Positions 6,494 through 44,487 are shown, counted from the stretch's first letter. The stretch: 64,000 nucleotides of DNA from an uncultured Syntrophobacter sp. (GCA_964478485.1 CAYZJE010000017.1:6065-70064), one strand, 5' to 3'. Numbers and translations: made by a program. Notes: a model not told the origin generated them from the sequence alone.

Positions 6494-6496
6494 TTT

Positions 6497-8457: not shown

Positions 8458-8569
8458 GCTGGGTTCTCCTCATTGAGAAAAAATTGTTCGGCCCTTACAG
8501 GAGCCGTGCTGCCTGTGAGTCCGTGCGCTACGTTGACTGATTTCGGAATTTCTGACCGGACGCCTAGAA

Positions 8570-11838: not shown

Positions 11839-12032
11839 AAAGTGAACGAGCTTCGGCTGGACGACAAGCGAGGATTTCTAAACTCGCAAAAAAATCACCA
11901 CGGAGGCGCGGAGCGCACCGAGGGAAAAGTGTCTTGTCAGGAAATATTTGGAACTCTGAGTCTCTGTGGTGAAAGGTCTTTTTTAACTTCTGCTGCGGCG
12001 TTGCCGCGCCAGGTGCTTCGTCGCGAAAGTCT

Positions 12033-16237: not shown

Positions 16238-16313
<76 letters not shown>

Positions 16314-16623: not shown

Positions 16624-17250
16624 TTACCTCGCTAACATGGCAACAATCGTTTTCGCTGCGACCGTCGGGTTCCGTGCGCTCATGATCGCTGAGATGAGCG
16701 CGACACCGTGAATGCCGGTAGTCATCGTTACCGCTAGATTCGTAGCATTAATACCGCCGATAGCATAAACAGGTAGTGCGACTTTTTCCACTATTTCTTT
16801 TAGAGCCGCAACTCCCTGGGGCGCACCGTAAGCAGCCTTTGATGGCGTGAAATGAACCGGACCAAACAAGATAAAATCGGCGCCGTTGCGCTCGGCTTCT
16901 TTGGCCTCATCCGGAGAATGGGTCGAATACCCAATCAATTTTTCCGCGCCAAGCAGAGCGCGCGCGGTCTCGATCGGCAAAGAAGTTTTGCCGAGCTGAA
17001 CGCCGGCGGCGTCGACCACGAGCGCGACATCGATTCGGTCATTAACAAAAAGTTGGGCGTTGTAACGCTGACAGAGCAGGGAGATCTTATCGGCGATCTC
17101 GAAGATCTCTTTACCGTCGAGATCTTTTTCTCGCAATTGAATCGCCTTAACACCGCCGTCCAGCGCCCGTTCAAGGACGGCGCAAAGATCGCGCCCCCGA
17201 GTTAGCTTTCGATCGGTGATCAGATAGAGGTCGAAGTTCGGTTGTGGCAC
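16624..17250 (-). CDS. thiE: thiamine-phosphate synthase
   Basis: N-terminal DLYLITD motif, length 208 aa, position in thiS-thiG-thiE operon. Confidence 0.9.
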   Translation of the reverse strand: MPQPNFDLYLITDRKLTRGRDLCAVLERALDGGVKAIQLREKDLDGKEIFEIADKISLLCQRYNAQLFVNDRIDVALVVDAAGVQLGKTSLPIETARALLGAEKLIGYSTHSPDEAKEAERNGADFILFGPVHFTPSKAAYGAPQGVAALKEIVEKVALPVYAIGGINATNLAVTMTTGIHGVALISAIMSARNPTVAAKTIVAMLAR

Positions 17251-17259
17251 GGCAACGCG

Positions 17260-18033
17260 TTAGTTGAGGATTCCTTCTAAAGGACTGGATGCCGTGGCGT
17301 AGAGTTTTCTTGGTATTCTTCCCGCGAGATAAGCTTTCCGTCCCGCCTCGACGCCCTGGCGCATCGCTTCCGCCATTAAAATAGGATCTTTCGCGCTGGC
17401 AATAGCTGTGTTCATCAAGACACCGGCACAGCCCATCTCCATGGCGACCGCGGCGTCGGATGCAGTCCCGACGCCGGCGTCGACGATGACCGGAACCTTG
17501 GCATGTTCCAAGATGATGCGGAGATTATATGGATTCCTAATGCCCAAGCCCGAGCCGATGGGGGCCGCCAGCGGCATCACCGCGGCGCAGCCGATGTCTT
17601 CGAGCTTTCGCGCCGTGATCGGATCGTCGGTGATGTAGGGCAACACGACGAAACCTTCCTTGACCAGAATTTTCGCCGCGTCGAGGGTCGCCGGCACGTC
17701 GGGGAAAAGCGTGCGGTCGTCGCCGATCACTTCGAGCTTGACCAGTTTTCCGACGCCGGCTTCTCGGGCGAGGCGGCAGGTGCGCACGGCGTCGTCGGCG
17801 TTGTAGCAGCCCGCGGTGTTGGGCAAAATGGTATATAGTTTCGGATCGAGATAGTCGAGCAGGTTCTCTTTGTTGGGATCGGTGATGTTGACCCGGCGCA
17901 CCGCGACGGTGACGATCTCAGCGCCGGACGCTTCGATGGCGCGCTTGGTTTCGGCGAAGTCCTTGTACTTTCCGGTGCCGACAATCAAGCGCGAACGAAA
18001 TTTAGTTCCCGCTAACTCGAAAAAATCTTCCAC
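17260..18033 (-). CDS. thiG: thiazole synthase
   Basis: strong ThiG family resemblance ([30 protein letters not shown]), 257 aa. Confidence 0.9.
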
Positions 18034-18299: not shown

Positions 18300-18425
18300 G
18301 CAACCCGCGAGGCGGTTCCGCAGGATTTCGACTTTCACGCTTCCCTACGCCGGCGCGACCCGGATCAGGTTCAAAGGGTTACCTGTTTTTCAGGCTCTCA
18401 GTCTGACGTGGGCAGACACCCCTAG
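18300..18425 (-). promoter_or_regulatory. TPP (THI-element) riboswitch in the 5' leader of thiS-thiG-thiE
   Basis: minus-strand sequence GGGGTGTCTGCCCACGTCAGACTGAGAGCCTGAAAAACAGGTAACCCTTTGAACCTGATCCGGGTCGCGCCGGCGTAGGGAAGCG carries the conserved CUGAGA, ACCUGAUC, GG...GCCGGCGUAGGGAA blocks. Confidence 0.8.
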
Positions 18426-18541
18426 CAATGGAGCATGCTTAACAAAGCGCTGGTGGCAAGTCAAATTGGCGGATCGAATCGATTAAACCGTTCAAGTCGA
18501 AGGTCATTTGGTATGGCGAAGAAGATGAATCCAAGCGCGGT

Positions 18542-26849: not shown

Positions 26850-27338
26850 TTGCTTTTTTCACCCTGTACGACTAAAGTTGACAACGTGGCAGTTTTCAAG
26901 CGTCCTTTCTTTACGTCATTTACCACTAGCCTTTGGGTTCGCTTTCTCCGTTTCAGCTTGCAGTCGCACAAGAAACTCGAAGATGATTTAGCGAAGGCCG
27001 GATTAACGCCGCCGCAGTTTTACGTGCTCGCGACCATCGGTTACGCCGGCGGTCTGCCGTTCGGCGAGATCGGCGCCAAAATGATGGTGACGGTAAGTAA
27101 TTTGACCGGCATCGTCGATCGGCTCGAGGAAAAAAAGCTGGCGGTGCGCCAGCGCGACGCCCACGACCGGCGGGTGGTTCACGTGGTGCTGACGGACAAG
27201 GGCACGAAGCTTTACAAAACCACGATTCCGCTCTTCGAAAAGAGCGTCGAGAAGATCTTCCTCGGCCTCGGTAAACCTGACCAGAAGGAGCTAGCGGCGA
27301 TCTTCCGTAAGCTCAATCAAGATTCCACCGTTAACTAG
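26850..27338 (+). CDS. MarR family transcriptional regulator
   Basis: winged-HTH block LTPPQFYVLATI...VSNLTGIVDRLEEKKLAVRQRDAHDRRVVHVVLTDKG. Confidence 0.75.
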   Translation: MLFSPCTTKVDNVAVFKRPFFTSFTTSLWVRFLRFSLQSHKKLEDDLAKAGLTPPQFYVLATIGYAGGLPFGEIGAKMMVTVSNLTGIVDRLEEKKLAVRQRDAHDRRVVHVVLTDKGTKLYKTTIPLFEKSVEKIFLGLGKPDQKELAAIFRKLNQDSTVN

Positions 27339-27524: not shown

Positions 27525-28748
27525 GTGAACGACGATAGCAAAAAACCCATCGGGCTCGAAAGAGTCAAACCGTGGCTTTACGCCAAGGGGCTCGACCAGC
27601 GGAGCAGCGGATGCGTGCTGTGCGGTTCGTGCTACGGCCATGGGCCGGCCAATCCGATGGAAGACCTGCCTGGGCCGAAAGAAAAGTGTCCGCCCTACGA
27701 ATTCTACAAATTCCAACGCCACACGCCGAAGTCGCGTTGGCTGATGGCGCAGCGGGTTTTTCACGGCCTCGATCCGATCACGCCGGAACTAAAAGAAGTC
27801 ATCTACGCCTGCACCAACTGTCTCATGTGCCAGGAACTTTGCGGCGTGCGCGGCGACGGCTACGGTCCCTGGGATATCACGGTGGCCATGCGCGAGGAAA
27901 TCACCGAGAAAGACGGTCCGCTTCCAGCGCATCGACCGATCTACGACGGACTCAAGCAGCATGACAATCCTTGGTCGCAGCCAAAGGATGAGCGCGGCGC
28001 GTGGGCCAGCGGGTTGGCATTAAAGAAACTAGGTGAGTCGAAATCTTCGACACTGCTGTTCGCCGGCTGCTCGGCGGACCGCGACAGCGGCCGCAGCGGC
28101 GCGGTCGCCCTGGCACAGTTGATGAAACGAGCCGGCGACGATTTCGTGATTTTAGGCGACGCGGAAAAATGCTGTGGACTCTATGCTTTCGATCTCGGCT
28201 TTCGCCGCGAATTCGAGCGGCTGAAAGAGGACAATCTGGCGACGCTCGAGAATGCCGGAATTACCCGTGTCGTCGTTGCTTGCGGCAGCTGCCAGAGAAT
28301 CTGGCGCGAATATAAGAAAGAAGCCGGCGCTGATTTTCAAGTTATTCATGGCGTCGAATATGTCGAGCAGATGGTGCGGTCGGGGCAATTAAGATTTCCC
28401 AAGCCGATCGGCAAAAAAGTCACGTACCATGACTCCTGTCATCTCGGCCGTGGCTGCGGCGTTTACACGGCGCCGCGAACTATTTTGGGCGCGATACCCG
28501 GTGTCGAGCTGGTCGAGATGGCACGCAATCAGCGCTGGGCTTGGTGTTGCGGCGGCGGCGGTGGGGTGCCGGAAGCCGACCCGGAGTTGGCCGAGTGGAA
28601 TGCAGCGGATCGCATGCGCGAAGCCGAGGAGACCGGCGCGGAACTGATGCTTACTTCGAGCGCGCTCTGCCAGCGGTCGTTCGCCGATTTGAAAGTAGCC
28701 GCACTGCCAGTGCAAGATTTGCTCGAATTCGCGCTTCAGGCTATTTAG
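27525..28748 (+). CDS. (Fe-S)-binding protein with 2x[4Fe-4S] ferredoxin motifs and two CCG domains (HdrD/GlcF/GlpC-like)
   Basis: CVLCGSCY and CTNCLMCQELCGV cluster motifs; CCG motifs KCCGLYAF and WCCGGGGG. Confidence 0.8.
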   Translation: MNDDSKKPIGLERVKPWLYAKGLDQRSSGCVLCGSCYGHGPANPMEDLPGPKEKCPPYEFYKFQRHTPKSRWLMAQRVFHGLDPITPELKEVIYACTNCLMCQELCGVRGDGYGPWDITVAMREEITEKDGPLPAHRPIYDGLKQHDNPWSQPKDERGAWASGLALKKLGESKSSTLLFAGCSADRDSGRSGAVALAQLMKRAGDDFVILGDAEKCCGLYAFDLGFRREFERLKEDNLATLENAGITRVVVACGSCQRIWREYKKEAGADFQVIHGVEYVEQMVRSGQLRFPKPIGKKVTYHDSCHLGRGCGVYTAPRTILGAIPGVELVEMARNQRWAWCCGGGGGVPEADPELAEWNAADRMREAEETGAELMLTSSALCQRSFADLKVAALPVQDLLEFALQAI

Positions 28749-28750
28749 TC

Positions 28751-29485
28751 ATGGTCAAAGAACCGCATTTTACACCGCAGCGAATGCTCAACATGCTTGG
28801 GCTCAAGCCGGATTCGCTCGGCCCCTACGCGCTCGTACCGGGTCCGAAGGAACGCAGCGAATTGCTGCTCAAACTTTTGGATAGTCCGCAAAAGAGTTTC
28901 ACCTTTCTCGACTACGAGATGCATACCGGCGCGCTTGATGGAAAGCGGGTTAGCATCGGCAACGGCGGACGTTACGCGCCGGACACGGCGATCACGACGG
29001 AGATTCTCTGCGGTGCCGGGGCCGAGACATTGATTCGGGTCGGCAGCTGCGGCTCGCTGCAGGACGACATCAAAATCGGCGATCTGGTCATCGTCACCGG
29101 GGCGCTTCGCGGCGACGGCACATCGCGTTACTACGTGGCGGAAAATTTCTCGACCGTCGCCCATGGCGATATCGTCAACGCGCTTAAGCACGCGGCCGAC
29201 GAACTCAACGTGCGCTACCATTTGGGCTGGATTTTTACCACCGACGCGTTGTTTCAAGAAACCCCCGAGCTGATTCAACAACTCAACCAACAACATGTTT
29301 CCAGCATCGACATGGTGACTTCGACCTTTCTGACCATTGCTCAAGTGCGCGGCAAAAAAGCCGGCGCGGTGTTGGCGGTTTCGGATGAATGCTTGCACGG
29401 CAAGTTTGGCTTTCGCGATCCGGCGTTCTTCGAAGCCGAGCAAAAAACCATCGAAGTGGCGCGCCAAGCGCTAAAATATCTCTGA
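28751..29485 (+). CDS. PNP/UDP-family nucleoside phosphorylase (DeoD/MTA-phosphorylase-like)
   Basis: family blocks (ETLIRVGSCGSL; IVTGALRGDGTSRYY); ATG 3 nt after the upstream stop; first gene of the mtnA-aldolase cluster. Confidence 0.7.
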   Translation: MVKEPHFTPQRMLNMLGLKPDSLGPYALVPGPKERSELLLKLLDSPQKSFTFLDYEMHTGALDGKRVSIGNGGRYAPDTAITTEILCGAGAETLIRVGSCGSLQDDIKIGDLVIVTGALRGDGTSRYYVAENFSTVAHGDIVNALKHAADELNVRYHLGWIFTTDALFQETPELIQQLNQQHVSSIDMVTSTFLTIAQVRGKKAGAVLAVSDECLHGKFGFRDPAFFEAEQKTIEVARQALKYL

Positions 29486-29513
29486 CGGTTGCAAGTCGGT
29501 CTGTGCAAAAAAG

Positions 29514-31031
29514 ATGAGCGCTGTAGAAAGCCCGCTGTTCGAACCGGTGCACTGGCAAGGCGCGGGCTTCGAAATTCTTGACGAGATCCAAGTTCCCGAG
29601 AAGATCGAGTACATCCAGGTGACCGAAGTCGCTCAGGCGATCGAGGCCGTGCGCGAGATGAAGACCCGCGCCTACGGCCAGGTGCTCACCTTTCTCTACA
29701 GCGCCGCGCTCGTGGCGCAGCAATACCAGGGAAATGAGCCGGCGCGGCTGCGCGAACGGCTAGCGTTGCTGACGCAGCAGTTTTGCGACGTGCGGCCAAC
29801 CTTCGATTTTCGCGGGCTCGGCAGTCACGTCGAGGAGTTTTTTGAGAAGTTACCGGCTAACGGCTCGGTTGGCGAGTCCATCGCGCGCCAGGCGCGCGAG
29901 TTCGGTGCGCAAATCACGCAGGCGCGGAGGGGCCGCGCCAAACGCACCGCTGCCGTGCTGCCCAATCCGGCGCGCGTGCTGACTCATTGCAATGTCAGCG
30001 GCGAGCTGGTCGCGGTAGCGTATTATTGTAAAGAGTTGGGCAAGGAATTCTCGGTCATCGCCACGGAGACTCGCCCCTATCTGCAGGGGGCGCGCTTGAC
30101 CGCGTGGGAGCTGGCGCAAGCGGGGGTTGACGTCGCGCTGATCCCCGACTGCGCGGTGGCGCAAGTGATGGCGAAAGGCGAGGTCAATGCCGTCATCGTC
30201 GGTGCTGACCGCTCGGCGCAAAACGGCGATGTCATCAATAAGGTCGGCACCTATCCGATCGCGCGGCTGGCCAAGGAATACGGCTTGCCCTTTCACGCGC
30301 TGGTGCAGGATCCGCGCGGGCTCGAACGTGGCGGCGATGTGCCGATCGAAGAGCGACCGGCGCCAGAGCTGCTGACTTTTCGGGGCAAACCGCTGATCGC
30401 CGGAAGCTATTCAACACTCATGTCGCGTTACCCGTCTTTCGATGTGACGCCGGCAGCGTTGATTACTCATCTCATCGGCTTCGACAATCTCTACACGCCG
30501 GAAACTTTTCGGCAGAAGTATCAGGCGCAGGGAGGCGGCTTAAACGGCAAGCCCGTGGCACGCGGAAAATATCTTTTGCTCTACGGTGTGCCGCCGAAAA
30601 GCCAATACGTTTTTTTGTTAAAGACCTTAAAGGCGGTGCAGGCGGAGAGCCTGCTTGTCCCTGAGATGCGGCCGGAGCTTTGGGGCGCCCAGGTGGTCGC
30701 TCGCGACCTGCTGGCGTTGAACGCACCGGTGACGCTGATCTCCGACAACATGATGGGGACAATGTTCGCGCACGGCGAGATAAGTAAGCTATGTTTCTTC
30801 TATAACCGGGTGGCTGAGATTGGGCCGACCGGCATAGTCGGTTCGCTGCTGGCGGTGCAGCTGGCACGTTTACATGGCGTGCCGATTGAACCGTTGAGCG
30901 GTGTCGAGTGGGTTTCCGCCGCCTCTGACAATGATGTCTCGACCTTCATGGGCAAGAATATTTGTCCAGCCGGGGTTTCGATCCACTTGGTTGAACCGGA
31001 AGTGGTGCCGTGGCGGTTGTTGAAAGATTAG
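29514..31031 (+). CDS. mtnA: S-methyl-5-thioribose-1-phosphate isomerase (MtnA, eIF-2B family) fused to a degenerate second eIF-2B-like half-domain
   Basis: ETRPYLQGARLTAWELAQAGVDVALIPD...VIVGADRSAQNGDVINKVGTY...IPIEERP...FDVTPAALI aligns with B. subtilis MtnA; extra roughly 150-aa C-terminus repeats the pattern in degenerate form (ELWGAQVVARDL, TLISDNMMGTMF). Confidence 0.8.
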   Translation: MSAVESPLFEPVHWQGAGFEILDEIQVPEKIEYIQVTEVAQAIEAVREMKTRAYGQVLTFLYSAALVAQQYQGNEPARLRERLALLTQQFCDVRPTFDFRGLGSHVEEFFEKLPANGSVGESIARQAREFGAQITQARRGRAKRTAAVLPNPARVLTHCNVSGELVAVAYYCKELGKEFSVIATETRPYLQGARLTAWELAQAGVDVALIPDCAVAQVMAKGEVNAVIVGADRSAQNGDVINKVGTYPIARLAKEYGLPFHALVQDPRGLERGGDVPIEERPAPELLTFRGKPLIAGSYSTLMSRYPSFDVTPAALITHLIGFDNLYTPETFRQKYQAQGGGLNGKPVARGKYLLLYGVPPKSQYVFLLKTLKAVQAESLLVPEMRPELWGAQVVARDLLALNAPVTLISDNMMGTMFAHGEISKLCFFYNRVAEIGPTGIVGSLLAVQLARLHGVPIEPLSGVEWVSAASDNDVSTFMGKNICPAGVSIHLVEPEVVPWRLLKD

Positions 31032-31043
31032 CAAGAGCGATCC

Positions 31044-32036
31044 GTGGCCAAGCTTGAAAACGACATGATGCGCTGGGGCAAGCTACTCTTCGAGCGGCGG
31101 CTGATCAGCGGCTGGGGCGGCAACTTAAGTTGTCGTGCCGGTAAAAACACTTTCCTGATCACCGGCCAACACGCGCCACTGGCTTTTCTTACGCTGAAAG
31201 ATTTGGTACGGCTGAATTCTGACGGCAAGCCGGTGCGCAAGGAACAGCGCGCCTCAAGCGAGACGCCGATGCACATGGCGGTGTATTCAGGGACCGAGGC
31301 GCGAGCGATCGTGCACGTGCACCCGCCCATGGTGCTGGCTTTTTCTCTGACTCATGAAAGCTTCGTGCCGGTAAGTTTTGAAGAGAAATACACCATCGGC
31401 GAGGTGCCGATTATCGCGCAGGATACGCCGACTGTCACCAAGCCAGAAAAAGTCGTCGAAGCGCTGCGATATCATCCGGTGGCGATTATCAAAGGGCACG
31501 GCACGGTGGCCATCGGCAAAACTTTTCAAGAAGCGTTTTTGTTGACGGACTTGCTCGAGGAGGCGGTGCATTGCCAATTTTTCAAGGACGGAGTTGCCGC
31601 TAACCGAGAATCGGCGACTGACCCGGCGAAACAAGAGAGCGTGGCGCCCGACGGCAAGCGGTATCCACTATTTTCCAAAGAGCATATGACCGCGCTGGTC
31701 GAGAGCGCAAACGGCGATCAGGATTTTCGCAAGTTCGGCGGCGAGACCAGCTTGACGACTTCGTTGACACTGCATATGGAAGAAAATAACACGGCGTGGA
31801 CGGTGAAATTTCTTTCCGGCGAAATTGCCGAATTGAATCAGCGAAGCGACGGCGATTTTCTGATCAGCGGCAACGCCGAGTGGTGGAACGCGGTGTTCAG
31901 TAACAAGATCGACGCGTTTTTGGCGACCCAGCAGGGCAAGTTAAAACTCAAGCGTGGCGAGCTGGCAGAGCTGTCGCGCTGGTACAAACCATTTCAAAGG
32001 GCATTCGCGCTATGGCAAACCATACCGATTCAGTAG
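31044..32036 (+). CDS. class II aldolase (MtnB/Ald2/FucA-like) fused to a C-terminal SCP2-like domain
   Basis: aldolase blocks ETPMHMAVYSG, IVHVHPPMVLAFS, KGHGTVAIGKTFQEAF; C-terminal about 130 aa with the SCP2-like pattern DGDFLISGNAEWWNAVFSNKIDAFLATQQGKLKLKRGELAELSRW. Confidence 0.75.
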   Translation: MAKLENDMMRWGKLLFERRLISGWGGNLSCRAGKNTFLITGQHAPLAFLTLKDLVRLNSDGKPVRKEQRASSETPMHMAVYSGTEARAIVHVHPPMVLAFSLTHESFVPVSFEEKYTIGEVPIIAQDTPTVTKPEKVVEALRYHPVAIIKGHGTVAIGKTFQEAFLLTDLLEEAVHCQFFKDGVAANRESATDPAKQESVAPDGKRYPLFSKEHMTALVESANGDQDFRKFGGETSLTTSLTLHMEENNTAWTVKFLSGEIAELNQRSDGDFLISGNAEWWNAVFSNKIDAFLATQQGKLKLKRGELAELSRWYKPFQRAFALWQTIPIQ

Positions 32037-33541
32037 GCTTTTTCGCGGCGGAAGTGTTGGACGTAACCGCGGCGCGCCAAGCGCAAAAGACCGCGCTCAT
32101 CACGAAAGAGGAAGAGCTCAGCTTCGGCGCGCTCAACCAACGGGTGCATGCGCTCGCCGGCCACTTACAGCAAGAAGGCATTCGCCAGGGCGACCGAGTC
32201 GGCGTGCTGTTGCCGAACTCCACCGCCATTCCACTGAGCTACTTCGCGACGCAGAAGATCGGCGCCGTGACCGTTATCCTCGACGCGCGCTTAAAAGGCA
32301 AAGAGCTCGAGGGCGTATTGAAAGACGCCGATCTTAAATTGCTCGTCGTGCATAGCCAGCTATTCGCCGAGGTCGAAGAGGTATTCACGGCGATGGCCCC
32401 GGTGCCGATGTGGATCGTCGGCGCGGATGGCGCGCGCGCTTTTGAAAAACGCTTCGCGGCGCCCGCCGGCGCGTTGACGCTGGCGAAATTGAATGCTGGC
32501 GACGATGCGTTGATTCTCTACACTTCAGGAACCACCGGCGAGCCCAAGGGCGTCGTGTTGAGCTATGTCAATTTAGCGCAATATCCGATGGTGATGGGAG
32601 AAATGCGGGTCACCGACTCCTCGACCATGCGCGGTTGTATCCTGCCGATGTCACATATCGTCGGCCCGGTGGTGTGTAACGAATTGGCCGACAGGGGCTA
32701 CACCTTGGTGATCTTCGATCAGATCAATCCGGTGACGCTCCTCGAAGGCATCCAAAAATATCGCGTCAATGTTTTCGAGAGCGTGCCGATCGTCTTTCAA
32801 CTTCTCCTCGGCGTGAAAAATCTCGCCAGCTACGATACCAGCAGCATGAAGATCGCGGCGATGATGGGCACGAGTATTCCCATGCCTTTGCTGCGCGCGT
32901 TCCAAGCGGCCGAGCCCCATATCAAAGTCATTCAAGGCTATGGGCTGACCGAGACCTCGCCGATGATTACGCTGGTTGAGCCGGACCGGGCCGAAGCCAA
33001 GATGGGCAGCATCGGCCGCGCCGTGCCGCGGGTCGAAGTGAAGATCGTCGACGAAAACGATAAGGAAGTTCCGCTCGGCGAAGCCGGCGAGATCATCACC
33101 CGCGGTCCCCATGTCATGAAAGGTTACTTTCGTCGGCCCGACGCCACCGCCGAGCGGATTCGTAACGGTTGGCTCTACACAGGCGATGTTGGCAAGGTCG
33201 AAGCGGACGGCTACTACTATCATCTTGGCCGGCGTGACGACATGATCATCACCGGCGGTTTGAATGTTTATCCCGCCGAGGTGGAGAATTTGCTTTACAC
33301 TTATCCCGGCGTGCAGGAGACCATCGTATTCGCCGTGCCCGATCCAAAGCGCGGCCATTTGATCGGCGCCGCCGTGGTGCCGCGCCCCGGCAGCAGCATT
33401 GTCGAGAAAGAATTGTTGACGTTCCTGCGCGGCAATCTGGCCAATTTCAAAGTTCCCGACCGGATCGTCATCCGCGAGTCGTTACCGCACACCTCGTCGG
33501 GCAAAACGGTTCGCGATGCGGCGACGTTGCTGGCGAGTTAA
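32012..33541 (+). CDS. AMP-dependent acyl-CoA synthetase/ligase (ANL superfamily)
   Basis: AMP-binding motif LYTSGTTGEPKGVVLS, GYGLTETSP, C-terminal lysine block SSGKTVRD; 25-nt overlap with the upstream gene. Confidence 0.85.
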   Translation: MANHTDSVGFFAAEVLDVTAARQAQKTALITKEEELSFGALNQRVHALAGHLQQEGIRQGDRVGVLLPNSTAIPLSYFATQKIGAVTVILDARLKGKELEGVLKDADLKLLVVHSQLFAEVEEVFTAMAPVPMWIVGADGARAFEKRFAAPAGALTLAKLNAGDDALILYTSGTTGEPKGVVLSYVNLAQYPMVMGEMRVTDSSTMRGCILPMSHIVGPVVCNELADRGYTLVIFDQINPVTLLEGIQKYRVNVFESVPIVFQLLLGVKNLASYDTSSMKIAAMMGTSIPMPLLRAFQAAEPHIKVIQGYGLTETSPMITLVEPDRAEAKMGSIGRAVPRVEVKIVDENDKEVPLGEAGEIITRGPHVMKGYFRRPDATAERIRNGWLYTGDVGKVEADGYYYHLGRRDDMIITGGLNVYPAEVENLLYTYPGVQETIVFAVPDPKRGHLIGAAVVPRPGSSIVEKELLTFLRGNLANFKVPDRIVIRESLPHTSSGKTVRDAATLLAS

Positions 33542-33658
33542 TTTTCATCACAACGGACCCAGCGCGGCGAAGCCGCAAGCGAAAATCGGCATGTCCCGCG
33601 TCCTTTGGGTCAAGCTCTGTACGCGAGGTTCGAACATCTCTGTGACATTGGTTAATTC

Positions 33659-34390
33659 ATGACATCCTGGCCTCAACCGCCTGTCGCGCTGCCGGCGCTT
33701 GAAACAAGCGTCCATGTTTGGGCCGTGCGGCTTGACGACGCGAGTGCCGATCTTGAGCGCGGCCGTAATTTGCTTTCCCCCGATGAGCGAGACCGAGCGG
33801 CGCGCTTCATATTTGAGCGAGATCGCCGGCGCTATTTGGCCGCGCATGCCGGGCTGCACGAAATTCTTAGCCGCTATCTGGCCATCGAACCGGCGCAATT
33901 GAGCTTTGATCTTGGCACTAACGGCAAGCCCAATGTTGCCCAAGCGTTGGCGCCGGGCGGCATCGAGTTCAACCTTTCCCACTCCAACGAAGTGGCCTTG
34001 GTCGCGGTCACCCTCGGACACGAGGTCGGCGTCGACATCGAACATGTCAGGGAGAAATTTGAGTTTCAGGACGTTGCCGATCGGTTTTTTACGGCCAAAG
34101 AAGTTGCCGCAATGCGTGGCTTGCCGTCGACACTGCAACGCCAGGCGTTCTTCAGATGCTGGACCAGTAAAGAAGCCTTTCTCAAAGCCAAAGGCACGGG
34201 TCTGTCCGGTGCGCTGGATGAAGTGAAAATTTCATTAGGCAGCGACGAGCAGGTTCGCGTCGCCGCCAATGTGCCGAATTGGTGGTTGTTCGAATTGGAC
34301 CCAATCGAAGGCTACGAGGCTGCACTTGTTTTAGCTAGTGAGCGAGCGCCGATTCGCTGCTACCAATGGCGGCCCAGGTTACCGGTTTGA
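33659..34390 (+). CDS. 4'-phosphopantetheinyl transferase (Sfp/EntD type)
   Basis: FNLSHSNEVALVAV, GVDIEHV and FFRCWTSKEAFLKAKGTG motifs. Confidence 0.8.
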   Translation: MTSWPQPPVALPALETSVHVWAVRLDDASADLERGRNLLSPDERDRAARFIFERDRRRYLAAHAGLHEILSRYLAIEPAQLSFDLGTNGKPNVAQALAPGGIEFNLSHSNEVALVAVTLGHEVGVDIEHVREKFEFQDVADRFFTAKEVAAMRGLPSTLQRQAFFRCWTSKEAFLKAKGTGLSGALDEVKISLGSDEQVRVAANVPNWWLFELDPIEGYEAALVLASERAPIRCYQWRPRLPV

Positions 34391-34468: not shown

Positions 34469-35911
34469 TCATTTCATCCGAAAACTCGGCGGGACGACTT
34501 CGTCGATTGGTTTTCCGGTCCAGTGCCATTTGGCGACGCTATCCCAGACCTGCTCGCCTTTGGCTTGGACTTTTTCCAATAGCTCGGCTTCATTTAGGCG
34601 TAAATATTTGCCGTTGTCGACAAGCGTTTCGCCGTCGACGATGACCGTGCGCACGTCGCGGCTGACGGCGGTTTCCATCAGTGATCTGATCGGATCGCGC
34701 ACGGCGCCGAAGGCGATGTCGAGGAGATTGACGATGGTGATGTCGGCTTTGGCGCCCTTTTGTAATCTGCCCAAGTCGTCGCGGCCGAGCATCCTCGCGC
34801 CGCCGAGAGTGATCGAGTTGAAAACATCGCGCGGATGGCCGGCAAGAAAGCTTTTGTCGGCGACTCTCGACGCGATCGCGGCGTAGCGCATGTCGGAGAG
34901 AATGTCTTTGGGAAAAGTGTCGGTGCCGATGCCCATGTTGATGCCGGCCTGGCGATACTTATCGAACGACTCCATTAAAATGCCGAGCTTTAGGTATTTT
35001 AACGGGCTATACGCGACCGACGCGCCGGAGTCGGCGATGATTTTCAAATCGTCGCCGTAAGGATAGGCGAGCCAGCTATGGCCGCTGACGAAGATGCAAT
35101 GTGACAGCGACACTTCGGGATCGAGGAAGCTAAGCTTTTTTAACAGTTCAATCGGTGTGCAGCGCTCGCGCTGCATCACGGTGTGGAATTCAACCAGATT
35201 GATCGTCGCGTGAATCTGCACGCGCACTCCGGTGTCCCGCGCCGCTTTCCTGGTCTCTTTGAGCAGCGCCGGCGTGCAGGAGTCGACGTGGCCGGGATAG
35301 AGCAGCGCCGTCATGCGGCCACTGCACGCGCCGTTGAATTTCTTGGCGAAGTCGACGGCGGTTGCTAATCCCTTGCTGCCGCGCTCGTCGTTCCAGTCGT
35401 ATTCCAGCCTGCCTTCTTTGTCGTGAAAGAACGAAACGTTTTTGTAGCTCGGGCCGGCGGCGCAGCGAATGCCGACCTGATCGATCATGTCGACGTAACG
35501 CTCCGGCTCGCCGCCGGCGCCGCCGATGTCGAAGGTCGTCGTCACGCCGCTCTTGAGCACGTGAATCAACGAGTAGCGCTGGCCGATGTCAACGTCTTTG
35601 AGATGCGCCGAATGCGCGCCCGCGCGGGTCGGACCGCCGTGGGCGAGGTAGTTCGACGCGAAGAAATCGGTCTTGGTCGAGTCGTTGAGAATGTAGTCGC
35701 TAGCGTTGATGCCGGAGTGAAAGTGGGTGTCGATGAAACCGGGCGATACCAAGCAGCCTTTGGCGTCGACCTTTTTATCAACCGGGTGGGGGTATTCTTT
35801 GCCGACGAACTCGACGCGATTGCCGTCGTAGACGACTACCCCATCTTTGATCACTTCATGTTCTCGGCCGTCGAAACCAACGACCCAGCCGCCTTGGATA
35901 AGAGTTTTCAT
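34469..35911 (-). CDS. amidohydrolase-1 family metal-dependent hydrolase (TRZ/ATZ/MtaD/SsnA-like)
   Basis: N-terminal GFIDTHFH metal-binding motif, conserved His/Asp pattern, 480 aa. Confidence 0.75.
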   Translation of the reverse strand: MKTLIQGGWVVGFDGREHEVIKDGVVVYDGNRVEFVGKEYPHPVDKKVDAKGCLVSPGFIDTHFHSGINASDYILNDSTKTDFFASNYLAHGGPTRAGAHSAHLKDVDIGQRYSLIHVLKSGVTTTFDIGGAGGEPERYVDMIDQVGIRCAAGPSYKNVSFFHDKEGRLEYDWNDERGSKGLATAVDFAKKFNGACSGRMTALLYPGHVDSCTPALLKETRKAARDTGVRVQIHATINLVEFHTVMQRERCTPIELLKKLSFLDPEVSLSHCIFVSGHSWLAYPYGDDLKIIADSGASVAYSPLKYLKLGILMESFDKYRQAGINMGIGTDTFPKDILSDMRYAAIASRVADKSFLAGHPRDVFNSITLGGARMLGRDDLGRLQKGAKADITIVNLLDIAFGAVRDPIRSLMETAVSRDVRTVIVDGETLVDNGKYLRLNEAELLEKVQAKGEQVWDSVAKWHWTGKPIDEVVPPSFRMK

Positions 35912-36223: not shown

Positions 36224-37297
36224 TCATCGTCCCCACAACTCGCGCTGAAAACCGCTTTTCTCTAAATTGTTGACGAAGCTGTTGTCGTAGAGATCTTCCG
36301 CGCGGCGCTTGACCGGCACGCCCTGGGAACGCAACAGCTCGATCGAGTCATGAACCGTTTGGCCCGGCACGATCATGCGCCGGTCGACGATGTCTTTGGT
36401 ATAGACGTTGTACGAGACTTGCAGCGCTTCTTCGTCCTTGGTGCGCATGACTTTGGCGATCGCCGCCTTAGTCTTGACGGGATTCTTGTCGACGTAGTGG
36501 ATCGCCTCGGCGAATGCCGCGACCATGCGCTGAACCATCTCTGAACGCTCGCGCACCGCCCGCGAGCTGGCGTGCAGCGAACTGTAAATGAAAGGAATAT
36601 CCAGGTCGATCAAACGATAGGTCACGTTGTATCCGTCATTCTTGGCGCGCACATCGATCGGCGGCGTGATGACGACTCCTTGAACGACGTTCATCGCCAT
36701 CGCCTGGTAGCGCTCGTTTTGGCTGCCGCCGATGGGCCGCAGGGTTACGTCGGGTACGTTGAACTTTTTGATCAGCGCGCGCGATAACCGGTCGCTTAAA
36801 TCTCCCGCTCGCGCCACCCCCAGTGCTTTACCTTTCAAATCCTCGATGCGGCGAATCTCTTTGCGGGTGATCAACACATAAGGCAGCTTGACCAGCGGCG
36901 CCGCAACCAGCTTGGCGTCGACACCGCCGGCCAGTGACGGTAGCGTCGCATCCGCGGCGCAATAGAGGAATTGAATCTCATCCGCCAACAGCGCGGTTAA
37001 GGCCGGTCGGCTACCGCGGATAAACACATGCTCCATCCTGAAGCCGTATTTATCGAAAAGATTATTCTCCAGCGCCGTGTAAAGATGCGCGAAGCCGCCT
37101 GAGACCGCGCAGGTGGCTATGCGAATGTTGATTGGCCGCTCGCCCGGGCGTGCCAGATATGGATTTGGCTGCGCTCGAACGAAAGCGTCTCCATAGGCGA
37201 TGAAAGCGAGTACTAACAAAATCGGCTTTGCCAGCGCGCGTCGGCCGATGGTCTGCCAGAATCGGACGGAGGATTGATGCGACCAACCCATCACCAT
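36224..37297 (-). CDS. NMT1/SsuA-like ABC substrate-binding protein with N-terminal membrane anchor/signal
   Basis: hydrophobic N-terminus AKPILLVLAFIAYG; family resemblance to the other NMT1-like SBPs in the window. Confidence 0.65.
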   Translation of the reverse strand: MVMGWSHQSSVRFWQTIGRRALAKPILLVLAFIAYGDAFVRAQPNPYLARPGERPINIRIATCAVSGGFAHLYTALENNLFDKYGFRMEHVFIRGSRPALTALLADEIQFLYCAADATLPSLAGGVDAKLVAAPLVKLPYVLITRKEIRRIEDLKGKALGVARAGDLSDRLSRALIKKFNVPDVTLRPIGGSQNERYQAMAMNVVQGVVITPPIDVRAKNDGYNVTYRLIDLDIPFIYSSLHASSRAVRERSEMVQRMVAAFAEAIHYVDKNPVKTKAAIAKVMRTKDEEALQVSYNVYTKDIVDRRMIVPGQTVHDSIELLRSQGVPVKRRAEDLYDNSFVNNLEKSGFQRELWGR

Positions 37298-41314: not shown

Positions 41315-42493
41315 ATGCCATTAGCGACTATTGAAGAAGCGATCGAAGACTACCGTCGCGGTAAATTGGTCATCCTGATGGATGACAAGGACCGCGAAAA
41401 CGAGGGTGATCTCTGCATGGCCGCCGAGAAGGCCACGCCGGCGGCGATCAATTTCATGGCGACCTATGGCCGTGGGCTGATTTGCCTGGCGTTAACCGAA
41501 GAGCGCGTCAAGCACCTGGGCCTAGCGATGATGGTATCCGACAATACTTCGCCCTTCGGCACGGCATTCACCGTCACCGTCGACGCCTCGGCGGGAATTA
41601 CCACCGGCATTTCCGCCGCCGACCGGGCCAAGACGATTCTTGACGCCATCGCCGACGATGCCAAGCCATCGGATCTGGTTTCGCCCGGCCATATTTTTCC
41701 ACTGCGCGCGCGCAACGGCGGCGTCCTGGTTCGCGCTGGCCAAACCGAAGGATCGGTGGACCTCGCGCGCCTCGCCGGGCTCAAGCCGGCCGGCGTGATC
41801 TGCGAGATCATGAAGGACGATGGCACCATGGCGCGCCAGCCTGACCTCATGCGCTTCGCCAAGAAGCATAAGCTCAAAGTGGTCACCAACGCCGATCTAA
41901 TTCAGCATCGCTTGAGCTATGACTCGCTGGTCTATAAAGCCGCGTCAGCGCCGCTGCCAACCCGCGTTGGCGGCGACTTCCAGGCCATCGTCTATAACAC
42001 CCACGTCGACAACAACGAGCATCTGGCGCTGATCAAAGGAAACATTTCAGCGAAGGAAGAAACCTTGGTGCGGGTGCACACCAAATACGTGCCCGGCGAT
42101 GTTTTTGGTTTCGAGCTGCTCAATACCGGCACGGTCATTCAGCGCTCCATGGAGATCATTGCCAAGGAAGGCAAAGGGGTCATTTTATATCTGCAGCCCA
42201 AGCAGAAGGCGCACCATCCCACCATGATGGCCTATCCGAAAGTCGACGGTAAACAGCAAAAGGCGATGAACCGTTCCTTTGTCTACCAGGCGGACTTCAA
42301 AGAGTACGGCATCGGCGCGCAGATCCTACGCGACCTCGGCGTGCGCAAGATGCGCTTGCTGACCAACAACAAAAAACATCTGGTCGGCCTGCGTGGCTAC
42401 GGCTTGGAAGTGACGTCGTTGGTGCCGATTCCGAGAGAGAATCCAATCCGTGAAGTGCCCAAGCAGACCAAAGCGAAAGCCAAGCGCGCCTAG
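41315..42493 (+). CDS. ribB: 3,4-dihydroxy-2-butanone 4-phosphate synthase fused to a GTP cyclohydrolase II-like domain that lacks the three zinc-binding cysteines
   Basis: RibB N-terminus [18 protein letters not shown]; C-terminal half aligns with RibA but HSECLTGD...RCDCG is replaced by HTKYVPGD...LLNTG. Confidence 0.8.
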
Positions 42494-43491: not shown

Positions 43492-44487
43492 CTAAATCTT
43501 GAACTCTTCAAGCGTGCTCTTGGCGAACAGCGAACCGACGTCGAGCTTCTTGCTGATCAACCCTTGCTCGTGAGTGTACTGCACCAGGGTCTCCAAGATA
43601 TGTCGGTTTGCTTCCAATCCGTAAGCCCAGGGATCGGGGCCGAGCAGCTCGCGCTCCTTTTCCATTTCGTCGATGGACCATGCCAGCATGTATTTGAGCG
43701 CGGAGAATTCGTACATCGCTTCTTGGCAAAGCCGCTTCGATTCGTCAAAGGCCTTGAACAGGCTCTGGGCGATCCACGGATGTTGCTCGTAAACCTCTTC
43801 GCGGATGACTATCGTGTGCATGATCGGAAAAATCTGCGTGCGCTTGAAATAGTCCGCTTCCACTGCGCGAAAGTTGGGGATCAAACGCTCGACCTTGGGA
43901 TGGCGGCGCACGAACGGCGACGGTATGTGCGCCGAGATCATGGCGTCGATCTCGCCGCGCTCGAGCATGCCGGAGAGTGTCTTGTCACTAGGGATTGCCT
44001 GGATATCGATGTTGGGGGGCAATTTGTGCTGGACTTTGTCTTGGCGGCCGGGATGCTCCTCGCCGCCGGTGAACCATTTCATTTTTTCCGGGAGCACGCC
44101 GTACTCATGCTGCAAGATGCCGCGCGCCCAAGTCGCCATGGTGATTTGATATTCGGGCACGCCGACGCGCTTGCCCGCCATGTCCGCCGGTTTCTTAATG
44201 CCGGAGTCGGTGTTGATGTAAATACACGAGTGGCGAAAAGTCTTCGACGGAAAAACCGGGATGCCGATCAGCCGCGGCGCGCCTTTGTCGCGCGACATCA
44301 AGAACGAGCCGGTCGACATTTCCGCCACGTCAAACTCGCCGTAACGCAGCATGCGCCAAAAAGTTTCTTCGACCCGCAGTGGCAAATAAGTCAGATCGAC
44401 GCCTTCGACTTCGACGCGGCCCTCTTGTAAGGCACGCGTCCGGTCGTAGTCCCAACAAGCCAGTGTCAAGCGAATTTTGCCCATCAA
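43492..44487 (-). CDS. PhtD/Pht5-like protein (4,5-dihydroxyphthalate decarboxylase family), paralog of 5181-6140
   Basis: N-terminal LTLACWDYDRTRAL motif and collinear similarity to 5181-6140 (GIPVFP, RHSCI, KRVGV, ILQHE, WF-GE, YFKRT-IFPI-H). Confidence 0.55.
   Translation of the reverse strand: MMGKIRLTLACWDYDRTRALQEGRVEVEGVDLTYLPLRVEETFWRMLRYGEFDVAEMSTGSFLMSRDKGAPRLIGIPVFPSKTFRHSCIYINTDSGIKKPADMAGKRVGVPEYQITMATWARGILQHEYGVLPEKMKWFTGGEEHPGRQDKVQHKLPPNIDIQAIPSDKTLSGMLERGEIDAMISAHIPSPFVRRHPKVERLIPNFRAVEADYFKRTQIFPIMHTIVIREEVYEQHPWIAQSLFKAFDESKRLCQEAMYEFSALKYMLAWSIDEMEKERELLGPDPWAYGLEANRHILETLVQYTHEQGLISKKLDVGSLFAKSTLEEFKI

Follow-up and report, generated by a model that had tools for sequence, protein, structure and literature searches.

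The 64,000-nucleotide stretch of DNA analysed here (the window), from a soil bacterium of the class Binatia, carries a compact series of genes on the plus strand, and all ORFs of the first-pass annotation were confirmed in position and strand by an ORF check of the window. A gene for a MarR-family regulator (26850–27338; Pfam MarR/MarR_2) is located directly upstream of the operon, with a gap of 186 nt to the first operon gene, which encodes an HdrD/TfrB-like Fe-S protein (27525–28748; two CCG domains and Fer4_8). This is followed by genes for a nucleoside phosphorylase (28751–29485; PNP_UDP_1, E 6e-34), an MtnA-type isomerase (29514–31031; IF-2B at residues 61–321, E 5e-49), an aldolase (31044–32036; Aldolase_II at residues 7–178, E 2e-37) and an AMP-forming acyl-CoA synthetase, ACS (32012–33541; Pfam AMP-binding and AMP-binding_C, and NCBIfam). 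The gaps between the first four operon genes are 2, 28 and 12 nt, respectively, and the reading frames of the aldolase and the ACS share 25 nt (32012–32036), an overlap that suggests translational coupling. A gene for an Sfp/HetI-type phosphopantetheinyl transferase, PPTase, lies further downstream (33659–34390; Pfam ACPS and AASDHPPT_N, and NCBIfam).

The CCG protein had its best NCBIfam match to TfrB (141 bits, far under the cut-off), and the PDB sequence search returned only an "iron-sulfur-binding reductase" and HdrB. The PDB sequences nearest to the ACS were a feruloyl-/fatty-acyl-CoA synthetase (8wev/8weu) and FadD13, with Acs far down the list; an acetate enzyme was thus rejected in favour of a FadD/feruloyl-CoA-synthetase-like type. 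Both the ACS and the PPTase are present downstream as annotated. Of the 67 Binatia loci, however, only 29 have the PPTase downstream, and its distance varies; it is probably a variable neighbour rather than part of the unit. No carrier-protein gene is present in the operon.

The reported lack of enolase-phosphatase (MtnC) and acireductone dioxygenase (MtnD) genes held for the approximately 60 ORFs scanned in the window, and no RuBisCO-like protein (MtnW) was found among them. A riboswitch search revealed no SAM- or Met-related element at the locus.

Domain identities and the two fusions

The phosphorylase belongs to a distinct subfamily of DeoD/Udp/SsMTAP-like (hexameric-type) enzymes. Its best NCBIfam match was Udp, at 143 bits against a cut-off of 280; no match to the MtnP model was listed, and the HpnG and MqnB models scored only 23 and 18 bits. 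In the PDB sequence search, Udp, Sulfolobus MTAP (1jds) and PNP were equally distant from it, at 98, 91 and 87 bits, respectively. The alignment revealed that phosphate-binding and purine-N7 residues are retained (Arg24, Arg87, Ser90, Asp204 and His4 are kept), while Arg43 is replaced by Leu and Glu181 by Val. The module-linked homologues share a DMV motif (29 of 29), and Glu181 is replaced by Val or Ile in all module-linked copies. The enzyme is thus best described as a putative DeoD/Udp-type phosphorylase that has kept the purine-protonating Asp and lost the ribose-hydroxyl-binding Glu. An assignment as MtnP was rejected, and the MTA-type reading proposed earlier does not agree with this atypical sugar pocket.

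The first 340 residues of the isomerase (29514–30533) scored 242.6 bits with NCBIfam model NF004326 (cut-off 271) and 224 bits with TIGR00512. The PDB sequence search matched MtnA 1t9k/2yrf (approximately 140 bits), the THCN and GADR..NGD..NK.GTY motifs falling into register, and the AF2 model (pLDDT 90) had B. subtilis MtnA 2yvk as the top fold match (TM 0.83). These catalytic Cys/Asp motifs suggest that the protein probably converts a 5-substituted ribose-1-phosphate to the corresponding ribulose-1-phosphate.

The remainder of the protein (residues 341–505; 30534–31031) represents a duplicated Rossmann half, since an internal BLASTP search aligned residues 180–263 with residues 379–461 (31% identity, E 9e-9). 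In this extension, Pro occupies the position of the catalytic Asp and the Cys of the THCN motif is missing, consistent with a non-catalytic module. Stand-alone homologues of 141–176 residues adjoin the aldolase::SCP2 gene in loci L070 and L073–L077 and resemble residues 350–503 more closely than they do the catalytic half (E 1e-14 to 2e-23); the copy in L074 also matches PF01008 (E 7e-20). The isomerase and the half-domain were encoded by separate ORFs in all 28 metagenome loci. Thus, the second eIF-2B-like half was correctly recognized as a fusion, but rather than a degenerate relic it is a protein conserved in its own right, which was joined to the isomerase in Binatia.

The aldolase domain (residues 1–185; 31044–31598) had its best NCBIfam match to the generic "aldolase" model NF006413 (137 bits). 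It retains the His3/Glu metal site of class II aldolases, and residues N27, S29, E73, H91, H93, E113 and H152 remain unchanged even at 23% identity. The PDB sequence matches were the FucA-like 2fk5 and DrdA 6btd, the latter a distant match (38 bits). The phosphorylase–isomerase–aldolase trio is thus present as annotated, with catalytic motifs and metal site.

After a linker that is variable among 30 Binatia sequences follows a highly conserved domain (residues 205–330; 31656–32036). The Pfam SCP2 match to this domain in the present protein is sub-threshold (18.4 bits against 21.3, E 0.003). However, the AlphaFold model of these residues (pLDDT 73–91) had the Thermus SCP2 structures 1wfr/2cx7 as top Foldseek matches in the PDB (E 2e-8, TM 0.70–0.81), followed by AF1534, alkylsulfatase SCP2 domains and UbiJ-SCP2, and distant aldolase homologues carry precomputed PF02036 matches. 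The annotated fusion to an SCP2-like lipid-binding domain is therefore confirmed by the predicted fold. Both fusions were full length in more than 100 protein clusters (68–91% identity) and are therefore not assembly artefacts; the aldolase::SCP2 fusion was retained down to 23% identity, and all complete aldolases from the metagenome clusters carried it. A literature search found no report of SCP2 fused to a class II aldolase.

These results bear on two alternative pathways. If the operon were the first half of classical methionine salvage, with mtnC and mtnD elsewhere in the genome, the aldolase-fold protein would be an MtnB dehydratase, as the MtnA-like isomerase and weak MtnB matches might suggest. 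However, the MtnB models reached only 37–59 bits (cut-offs 137–281), well under the generic aldolase models, Glu73 of the FucA-type mechanism is invariant, mtnC/D/W are lacking from the window, and the aldehyde dehydrogenase (ALDH)/ACS context elsewhere implies an aldehyde product. This reading was already disfavoured, and we give it almost no credence.

General ribonucleoside catabolism is very unlikely as well. Here adenosine/inosine or uridine would be phosphorolysed, ribose-1-phosphate would be isomerised directly to ribulose-1-phosphate, and cleavage of the latter would yield DHAP and glycolaldehyde. This would shorten the haloarchaeal non-carboxylating pentose bisphosphate pathway, and glycolate would be the substrate of the GlcF/HdrD-like CCG protein. 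The Udp match of the phosphorylase, a 67-bit match of the aldolase to the haloarchaeal ribulose-1-phosphate aldolase model (cut-off 300) and the inclusion of glycolate/lactate oxidase Fe-S subunits among CCG proteins point in this direction, but all supporting scores are far under the cut-offs. The isomerase is MtnA-like rather than R15P-isomerase-like (243 versus 114 bits, NCBIfam), the Asp204-type purine site speaks against Udp, and the SCP2 domain, the FadD-like ACS and the radical SAM (rSAM)/KS-CLF context would be left without a role. A class II aldolase on nucleoside-derived ribulose-1-phosphate is shared with the haloarchaeal pathway, but that pathway runs via R15P and RuBP and uses a kinase, a phosphatase and an e2b2-type isomerase, all of which are missing here.

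Conservation in Binatia and in distant lineages

The order MarR-CCG-phosphorylase-isomerase-aldolase-ACS was invariant in the 67 Binatia loci, with single genes missing in some. The MarR gene precedes CCG-phosphorylase in 54 of these loci, the CCG protein is present in 57 (and missing between MarR and the phosphorylase in 3), and the ACS follows the aldolase in 63. The synteny also takes in unrelated housekeeping genes (holA, PLD and S11 peptidase), and gene order inside Binatia therefore proves little. Neither an rSAM enzyme nor an ALDH was found within 10 kb of the module in Binatia loci. A Mo-hydroxylase gene was often observed a few kb downstream.

The decisive evidence comes from distant relatives (23–46% identity). 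In these, the phosphorylase, the isomerase, the half-domain protein and aldolase::SCP2 are again grouped, accompanied by an ALDH, an AMP-ligase and one orthologous B12-binding rSAM enzyme, usually inside a cluster of approximately 16 genes with KS/CLF/ACP and cyclases. Among the metagenome loci anchored on the rSAM gene, 33 had sufficient flanking sequence; 27 of these carried the module, at GC contents of 33–62%. The gene order was rSAM-phosphorylase-isomerase-half-aldolase(::SCP2)-ALDH in L074 and L077, and ACS-phosphorylase-isomerase-half-aldolase::SCP2-ALDH-rSAM in L075 and L076; aldolase::SCP2 adjoins the phosphorylase in L071 and the half-domain protein in L070. The ACS that heads distant clusters is 34–35% identical to that of the operon. 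The CCG protein was absent from the distant clusters examined and represents a Binatia-specific addition. The fusion to SCP2 and a second IF-2B half are universal in a clade that is elsewhere embedded in a B12-radical-SAM/KS-CLF-ACP cluster; we found no literature on the aldolase::SCP2 fusion or on a KS/CLF cluster carrying this module.

Since the module genes recur in rearranged orders in distant lineages, their linkage goes beyond shared ancestry. This argues against two unrelated units held together by inherited synteny, in which the phosphorylase and isomerase would be separate from an aldolase::SCP2-ACS pair acting on a non-nucleoside lipid substrate. Such an arrangement would fit the wide Binatia synteny, locus L003, which has kept aldolase::SCP2-ACS with phosphorylase remnants only and no isomerase, and locus L004, with a distant aldolase::SCP2 that lacks partner genes. 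The class II aldolase fold also includes oxygenases, and decarboxylases such as NovR and OtnC. However, the phosphate-binding and Glu73/His3 residues of the aldolase are invariant, and with the co-occurrence of all four proteins across lineages we consider separate units highly improbable.

A candidate nucleoside-trimming module

From the domain identities, the conserved catalytic residues, the fusions and the recurrent linkage we infer the reactions, the substrate and a role for the CCG protein. Our best explanation, to which we assign a probability of about one half, is that the operon (27525–33541) represents, in Binatia, a conserved "nucleoside-trimming" module. This would apply DHAP-shunt chemistry to a specialised compound, for which a purine (adenine-type) nucleoside with a bulky or hydrophobic 5' substituent is the most likely candidate. 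The phosphorylase would strip the purine base to yield a sugar 1-phosphate, which the isomerase would convert to the ketose 1-phosphate, with the fused Rossmann half as a built-in partner subunit. The aldolase would then split this into DHAP and an aldehyde, the tail of which may be held by the SCP2 domain. Outside Binatia, the clustered ALDH could oxidize the aldehyde to the acid, a step in which the CCG protein or a Mo-hydroxylase may take part in Binatia, and the acid would be activated by the ACS. A non-standard substrate is indicated because the SCP2 fold is universal on the aldolase clade, because Glu181 is replaced in all module-linked phosphorylases, because feruloyl-/long-chain acyl-CoA synthetases are the closest relatives of the ACS, and because ALDH and ACS flank the module elsewhere. 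The earlier idea that the aldehyde is bound by SCP2 and then CoA-activated fits these data. Counting against this explanation are the sub-cut-off NCBIfam scores of the isomerase and phosphorylase, the fact that SCP2 domains can be structural, the Binatia loci without a nearby rSAM or ALDH, which offer no candidate source of a special nucleoside, the class-wide Binatia synteny that takes in unrelated genes, the partnerless aldolase of L004, and the minority of rSAM orthologues that stand alone (L146).

The known DHAP shunt for 5-deoxyribose salvage in R. rubrum, ExPEC E. coli and B. thuringiensis consists of MtnP or MtnN with MtnK/DrdK, MtnA/DrdI and Ald2/DrdA. Similarly, the operon would proceed from a nucleoside (or sugar) via the sugar 1-phosphate, an MtnA-type isomerase and an aldolase of class II to DHAP and an aldehyde, in one operon lacking enolase-phosphatase and dioxygenase. 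Unlike the DHAP shunt, it has a non-MtnP phosphorylase, an additional Rossmann half and an SCP2 domain on an aldolase only distantly matching DrdA; downstream steps are hard-wired into the cluster (ALDH elsewhere, ACS here), and relatives sit in the rSAM/KS-CLF-ACP cluster. There is precedent for such reactions, since 5-deoxyribose is a substrate of the phosphorylase/kinase–isomerase–class II aldolase trio and 5'-fluorodeoxyadenosine is processed in the same way (PMC6079011).

The gene trio would also fit this published pathway (PMC6079011) as a plain DHAP shunt, yielding DHAP and (methylthio)acetaldehyde or acetaldehyde from MTA and/or 5'-deoxyadenosine; outside Binatia it would dispose of 5'-deoxyadenosine from the neighbouring rSAM, with ALDH and ACS leading to acetyl-CoA. 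The closeness of the phosphorylase to Sulfolobus hexameric MTAP, its purine-N7 Asp, the 5'-deoxyadenosine-producing rSAM enzyme adjoining the module in most distant loci and the lack of mtnC/D/W in the window are consistent with this. However, these aldehydes are small, yet every clade member carries the lipid-binding domain; the phosphorylase has lost its inter-subunit Arg along with the Glu that binds the ribose OH, the ACS is not Acs-like, five to six genes to clear the by-product of one enzyme would be unusual, Binatia retain the module with no rSAM gene nearby, and a SAM- or Met-related riboswitch is lacking. We therefore regard a plain shunt as possible but rather unlikely. Thus, of the original DHAP-shunt proposal the chemistry is well supported by inference, whereas the purpose of MTA/5'-deoxyadenosine salvage is not supported.

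The nucleoside-trimming module also resembles other systems. In the Streptomyces cattleya fluorometabolite pathway, 5'-fluoro-5'-deoxyadenosine is converted by the PNP FlB, an isomerase, a fuculose-aldolase-like enzyme and, via fluoroacetaldehyde, an aldehyde dehydrogenase to fluoroacetate. This series, cited in PMC6079011, is likewise biosynthetic rather than salvage and turns a modified adenosine 5' end into a C2 acid, but SCP2 and the half-domain are not part of it, and no halogenase is present here, the upstream enzyme of the relatives being a B12-binding rSAM protein. Base removal after C-adenosylation by a radical SAM enzyme is known for the pairs HpnH/HpnG (adenosylhopane) and MqnE/MqnB (aminofutalosine) (PMC13459092). 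There, too, an rSAM enzyme has as its partner a PNP_UDP_1-family member that acts on lipid- or aryl-linked 5'-deoxyadenosine, which provides a rationale for a lipid-binding domain. However, those pathways lack the isomerase/aldolase trimming step, the phosphorylase is neither HpnG nor MqnB, and HpnH and MqnE differ from the linked rSAM, which resembles BchE/HpnJ, carries a B12 domain and is missing from the Binatia locus. In the alkylsulfatases SdsA1/Pisa1, in UbiJ/UbiT and in MFE-2/SCPx, an SCP2 fold also accompanies a catalytic domain, by fusion or as a partner, to hold a hydrophobic tail; the catalytic domain here is that of a class II aldolase. The unusual extra domains, and membership in a large uncharacterised biosynthetic gene cluster in many other bacteria, suggest that the module is probably not a device for plain by-product recycling.

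Gene content of the operon and its surroundings

Analysis of the window recovered all six co-oriented ORFs at the positions proposed in the first-pass annotation. Identical and nearly identical homologues assign the window to a Candidatus Binatia MAG, although many of these entries carry the label "Deltaproteobacteria bacterium". The first five constitute the operon, all on the forward strand, and the Pfam searches returned the expected PNP_UDP_1, IF-2B/MtnA-family and Aldolase_II matches. The operon encodes a CCG protein (27525–28748; Fer4_8 and two CCG domains), a phosphorylase (PNP, 28751–29485; PNP_UDP_1), a 505-residue isomerase of the IF-2B/MtnA family (29514–31031), in which the Pfam match stops at residue 321, a 330-residue aldolase (31044–32036; Aldolase_II at residues 7–178) and an acyl-CoA synthetase (ACS, 32012–33541; AMP-binding ligase). 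The phosphorylase, the isomerase with its C-terminal half-domain and the aldolase with its SCP2 domain are referred to here as the module, to which the HdrD/TfrB-like CCG protein has been added in Binatia. The first three intergenic gaps are 2, 28 and 12 nt, and the aldolase and ACS genes overlap by 25 nt. A gap of 186 nt separates the operon from the upstream MarR gene (26850–27338), and a gap of 117 nt precedes the downstream gene for an Sfp-type PPTase (33659–34390; Pfam).

No kinase or phosphatase was found in the operon by Pfam, and no riboswitch or other Rfam element was found at it. A promoter and terminator scan of the region 26.7–36.1 kb gave no signal exceeding that of shuffled sequence, and no terminator was predicted within the operon. 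The initial observation that mtnC and mtnD are absent from the window held, as the 64 kb contain no ARD, HAD-enolase-phosphatase or RuBisCO-like ORF. Homologues of the B12-binding radical SAM enzyme (rSAM) and the aldehyde dehydrogenase (ALDH) of the distant clusters were found neither in the window nor in any of the 67 Binatia loci.

Two neighbouring genes were considered as pathway members and rejected. The presence and distance of the PPTase vary among the loci, and a gene for a carrier protein is absent. The convergent amidohydrolase gene (34469–35911), related to 5'-deoxyadenosine/MTA deaminase families, was present in none of the 67 other Binatia loci.

Elsewhere in the window, a second protein of the class II aldolase/adducin family (58120–58830, forward strand, 236 aa) stands alone, unlinked to the operon and without an SCP2 domain. 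Its top NCBIfam match is a ribulose-5-phosphate 4-epimerase-like subfamily (100 bits against a cut-off of 251), and it scores 38 bits with MtnB. A TPP riboswitch (18325–18433, reverse strand, 73 bits) is located upstream of a thiamine operon (ThiG 17260–18033, ThiE 16624–17250), which is followed by a tRNA-Thr(CGT) gene (16238–16313, reverse strand). Paralogues of NMT1/THI5-like periplasmic binding proteins are unusually many, at least eight (5181–13016, 36224–37297, 43492–44487), several of them in tandem and adjoining LigB dioxygenase, Rieske and ABC transporter genes. The gene at 47082–48473 (reverse strand), downstream of a MoxR AAA+ ATPase gene, encodes a 463-residue membrane-anchored protein with a long low-complexity tail rich in K, Q, G and E and without a Pfam or NCBIfam match; the AT skew of the window is strongest here (-0.245). 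A stand-alone protein of 171 residues (50511–51026, forward strand) consists only of the LeuA allosteric/dimerisation domain. The Rfam match "Vibrio RNA AS9" (41414–41515, reverse strand; 50.6 bits against a gathering threshold of 50), antisense within ribBA, is probably a coding-sequence artefact.

Domain architecture and active sites of the module

The THCN and NGD motifs of the isomerase align with those of the MtnA structures 1t9k and 1t5o, and both catalytic motifs are intact; in MtnA of B. subtilis, Cys160 and Asp240 are the catalytic residues. AlphaFold modelled the full-length protein with confidence (pLDDT 90, pTM 0.89), and the top fold match was B. subtilis MtnA (2yvk), with a TM score of 0.83. 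Scores with the NCBIfam MtnA models were slightly under their cut-offs (242.6/271 and 180.3/185.85), and the e2b2 model gave 113.7 against a cut-off of 314. The protein is assigned to the MtnA family as a predicted aldose-ketose isomerase with catalytic Cys and Asp.

The C-terminal extension of the isomerase had been described as resembling a second eIF-2B-like half, and this description was borne out. An internal BLASTP search of residues 1–340 against the last 165 residues aligned positions 180–263 with 379–461 at 31% identity (E 9e-9), and a stand-alone orthologue of the half-domain matches PF01008 with an E-value of 7e-20 over profile positions 124–271. These matches place the extension in the IF-2B/MtnA family, as a predicted Rossmann-like domain. 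The position of the catalytic Asp is occupied by Pro and the Cys of the THCN motif is absent; since the catalytic residues are not conserved, the extension is a non-catalytic member of the family.

The SCP2 match of the window aldolase is below the Pfam threshold (18.4 < 21.3), and PF02036 matches are carried by four of its homologues (P0264, P0255, P0263 and P0296). A first AF2 model of the aldolase had pLDDT values below 50 for residues 104–201, and the SCP2 part alone was used for the structural comparison. Residues 205–330 were modelled with pLDDT values of 73–91, and the best PDB matches were 1wfr and 2cx7 (E 2e-8, TM 0.70–0.81), with further fold matches to AF1534, the SCP2 domains of alkylsulfatases and UbiJ. 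The predicted SCP2 alpha/beta fold and the family-level sequence matches of the homologues agree with the earlier suggestion of a fused SCP2-like domain, a putative lipid-binding domain.

When 1.8 billion cluster representatives were searched for distant aldolases, the full-length fusion (approximately 320–340 aa, end-to-end alignment) proved to be kept down to 23–46% identity. Residues N27, S29, E73, H77, H91, H93, E113 and H152 are invariant to that divergence, and these include the phosphate-binding residues and the FucA/DrdA-type Glu (E73). The MtnB models scored far below their cut-offs (TIGR03328 59.3/137, NF006672 48/226, NF005244 37/281), generic aldolase models scored higher, and RU1PAldHalo reached 67 against a cut-off of 300. 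Glu73 is kept, but the active-site residues distinguish the protein only partially from the MtnB dehydratases. The C-terminal tail of FucA borders its active site on the side where the aldehyde binds, so that the position of the appended SCP2 domain would suit it for holding the hydrophobic moiety of an aldehyde.

The phosphorylase is of the hexameric NP-I type and lies at roughly the same distance from uridine phosphorylases, the hexameric MTAP of Sulfolobus and the PNP of Thermus. The best NCBIfam matches, Udp with 143 bits and DeoD with 98 bits, were both under their cut-offs, MtnN reached 41 bits, and no MtnP model was among the matches listed. HpnG (22.8 against a cut-off of 187) and futalosine hydrolase (17.6 against 125) scored lower still. 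The protein was aligned with PDB-derived fragments and with E. coli DeoD. The module-linked phosphorylases keep His4, Arg24, Arg87, Ser90 and the purine-N7-binding Asp204 ("VSD"). The inter-subunit Arg43 is replaced by Leu or Trp, and Glu181, which binds the 2'- and 3'-hydroxyls of ribose, by Val or Ile ("DMV" for "EME/DME"). The replacements were found in all metagenome copies (29/29). The pattern argues for a purine nucleoside with an unusual sugar environment, and both against Udp and against a textbook MtnP. An analogous function as MTA phosphorylase is possible, because the hexameric MTAP of Sulfolobus is a close solved relative.

Conservation in Binatia and in distant clusters

The conservation in Binatia was analyzed in 67 loci, of which 65 were obtained from a scan of species-representative genomes and 2 from metagenome contigs. 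The isomerase gene adjoins the aldolase::SCP2 gene in all 67. The complete string MarR-CCG-PNP-isomerase-aldolase-ACS was present in 48 loci; in the others it is interrupted by contig ends, except for three loci without the CCG gene. In a set of 30 Binatia sequences, the aldolase and SCP2 domains were strongly conserved and the linker differed in sequence and length. However, the neighbouring holA, PLD, S11 peptidase and MBL genes are just as syntenic as the operon, and the gene order in Binatia is therefore weak evidence of functional coupling.

The genes downstream of ACS vary, with an ORF of approximately 104 aa in 38 loci, the PPTase in 29 and a molybdenum hydroxylase in 16–18. The 104-aa ORF, which has no Pfam match and, although it often precedes the PPTase, no PP-binding signature, follows ACS in the Binatia loci L001 (12519–12836) and L002 (12512–12823) and also in the distant locus L003; it is missing from the window (33541–33659). 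The molybdenum hydroxylase (Fer2-MoCoBD-FAD_binding_5; aldehyde oxidase/xanthine dehydrogenase family) is encoded 2–8 kb downstream of ACS in L001, L002 and the 16–18 other Binatia loci. It recurs in L003, is absent from the window, and is a candidate for supplying the missing aldehyde-oxidising step in Binatia. Locus L003, which has a 46%-identical aldolase, was considered as a sign that aldolase and ACS form a unit of their own, separate from PNP and isomerase. This was rejected, as tblastn revealed PNP remnants and a truncated ACS. The phosphorylase is reduced to three short remnants (9469–9929) and the isomerase is gone, and the sequence of the locus points to an operon copy in decay.

In the distant loci, the half-domain is encoded separately. 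A 166-aa IF-2B-like gene overlaps the start of the aldolase gene in L070, and its product matches window residues 352–503 (E 1.5e-16) better than the catalytic half (E 1.4e-6). In L071, a 39%-identical phosphorylase is encoded 8 nt upstream of the aldolase. The order is rSAM-PNP-isomerase (321 aa)-half-domain (176 aa)-aldolase in L074, rSAM-PNP-isomerase-half-domain-aldolase::SCP2-ALDH in L077, and PadR-ACS-PNP-isomerase-half-domain-aldolase::SCP2-ALDH-rSAM-...-ApbA-KS-KS-ACP-cyclase-SRPBCC-MFS in L075 and L076. Identities to the window orthologues are 39–48% for PNP, 38–45% for the isomerase, 30–38% for the half-domain, 25–39% for the aldolase and 34–35% for ACS. The rSAM proteins are mutually orthologous (38–64% identity), BchE/HpnJ-like and B12-binding, and score far under every NCBIfam cut-off.

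A metagenome scan with an rSAM alignment identified at least 579 relatives, and the analysis was continued with the best 80 loci. An upstream flank of 6.8 kb or more was available in 33 loci; the module lies directly upstream of rSAM in 24 of these, and downstream, in a rearranged cluster, in another 3. Isomerase and half-domain are separate ORFs in 28/28 metagenome loci, and every complete aldolase extends through the SCP2 part. As the Cys/His/His triad is missing from the second KS, the KS pair is KS/CLF-like. The rSAM-anchored loci have GC contents of 33–62%, which indicates that the cluster, of approximately 16 genes, spans many lineages. It also encodes conserved small proteins, namely of approximately 95–99 aa and 150 aa, a TIGR04076-family protein and an ApbA/PanE-like reductase (L078–L157; examples are L075 14191–14490 and L076 15583–16206). 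A smaller share of the rSAM orthologues occur on their own. One subgroup (L080–L089, L146 and L152; 53–70% identity) has no partner genes in flanks of up to 8 kb, and the rSAM gene of L146 adjoins genes for CbiMNQO cobalt transport, TetR and a TonB receptor.

Proposed chemistry and substrate

By analogy, the best-supported chemistry for the operon would be phosphorolysis, aldose-ketose isomerisation of the 1-phosphate, aldol cleavage to DHAP and an aldehyde, oxidation and CoA activation. The analogies are the 5-deoxyribose/DHAP shunt and the fluoroacetaldehyde pathway, to which the same paper refers (PMC6079011). The MtnA-family isomerase with its catalytic residues is common to the shunt and the operon, whereas the first step would be taken here by the phosphorylase of the hexameric NP-I type in place of MtnP or of MtnN with MtnK/DrdK. 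The class II aldolase has the metal-binding His triad and Glu (E73, H91, H93, H152) and would produce DHAP and an aldehyde. An ALDH gene follows the aldolase gene in the distant clusters, which implies an aldehyde product. The window ACS is nearest to feruloyl- and fatty-acyl-CoA synthetases and FadD13, with acetyl-CoA synthetase lowest in the list.

Other known systems differ from the operon. Classical methionine salvage combines MtnB with MtnC/MtnD or MtnW/X, but the MtnB scores are low and these partners are absent in 64 kb. In contrast to the HpnH/HpnG and MqnE/MqnB systems, the locus encodes neither an HpnG/MqnB-type enzyme nor an adenosylating rSAM, and it does not correspond to the haloarchaeal ribulose-1-phosphate aldolase pathway (R1P kinase, e2b2-type R15P isomerase, RuBP phosphatase and Ru1P aldolase).

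The first-pass annotation had assigned the genes to a DHAP shunt for salvage of MTA or 5'-deoxyadenosine. The shunt chemistry stands as the best-supported reading, but the salvage purpose is poorly supported, because the SCP2 fusion is universal, a non-catalytic partner domain is conserved, the phosphorylase pocket is altered (Glu181Val), and the context consists of a FadD-like ligase and a cluster with B12-rSAM, ALDH and KS-CLF-ACP. These features fit better with a pathway devoted to a 5'-substituted purine nucleoside that is bulky and probably hydrophobic.

A more specific hypothesis, to which we give roughly one chance in five, is that the module does the trimming in a two-carbon homologation based on the ribose of SAM, and that Binatia have recruited the module together with the CCG protein. 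The partner B12-binding rSAM would act on a hydrophobic lipid or polyketide by attaching or tailoring a 5'-deoxyadenosyl unit, and C-adenosylation by radical SAM enzymes has precedents in HpnH and MqnE (PMC13459092). The phosphorylase, the isomerase with its half-domain and the SCP2-tethered aldolase would then remove adenine and C1'–C3' (as DHAP), leaving R-CH2-CHO. Oxidation and CoA activation of this aldehyde would follow and could, for example, supply the adjacent KS/CLF/ACP with a starter or re-entry unit. In Binatia, with no rSAM or PKS nearby, the module and the CCG Fe-S protein might process adenosyl-lipids made elsewhere or derived from soil, such as adenosylhopane-type compounds.

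No description of the class II aldolase-SCP2 fusion, the half-IF-2B partner or the 16-gene cluster was found in open-access and bioRxiv full text, and a report may exist elsewhere. Three uncharacterised protein families, each with a clear signature, are defined here: the aldolase::SCP2 fusion, the non-catalytic IF-2B Rossmann half, either stand-alone or fused, and the DeoD-like phosphorylase with "DMV" replacing "EME". The results also point to a widespread cluster that combines a B12-radical SAM enzyme, with at least 579 metagenome relatives, with the module, ALDH, ACS and KS/CLF/ACP, and they provide candidates with which a new fate of the 5'-deoxyadenosyl moiety could be tested. There is a realistic chance that the operon, which is universally conserved in Binatia, an abundant uncultured class of soil bacteria, represents a new biosynthetic logic. 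If the proposed pathway is right, the chemistry of the DHAP shunt would be more than a means of detoxification or salvage, namely a modular tool that, joined to a lipid-binding domain, has been built into biosynthetic or lipid-catabolic pathways.
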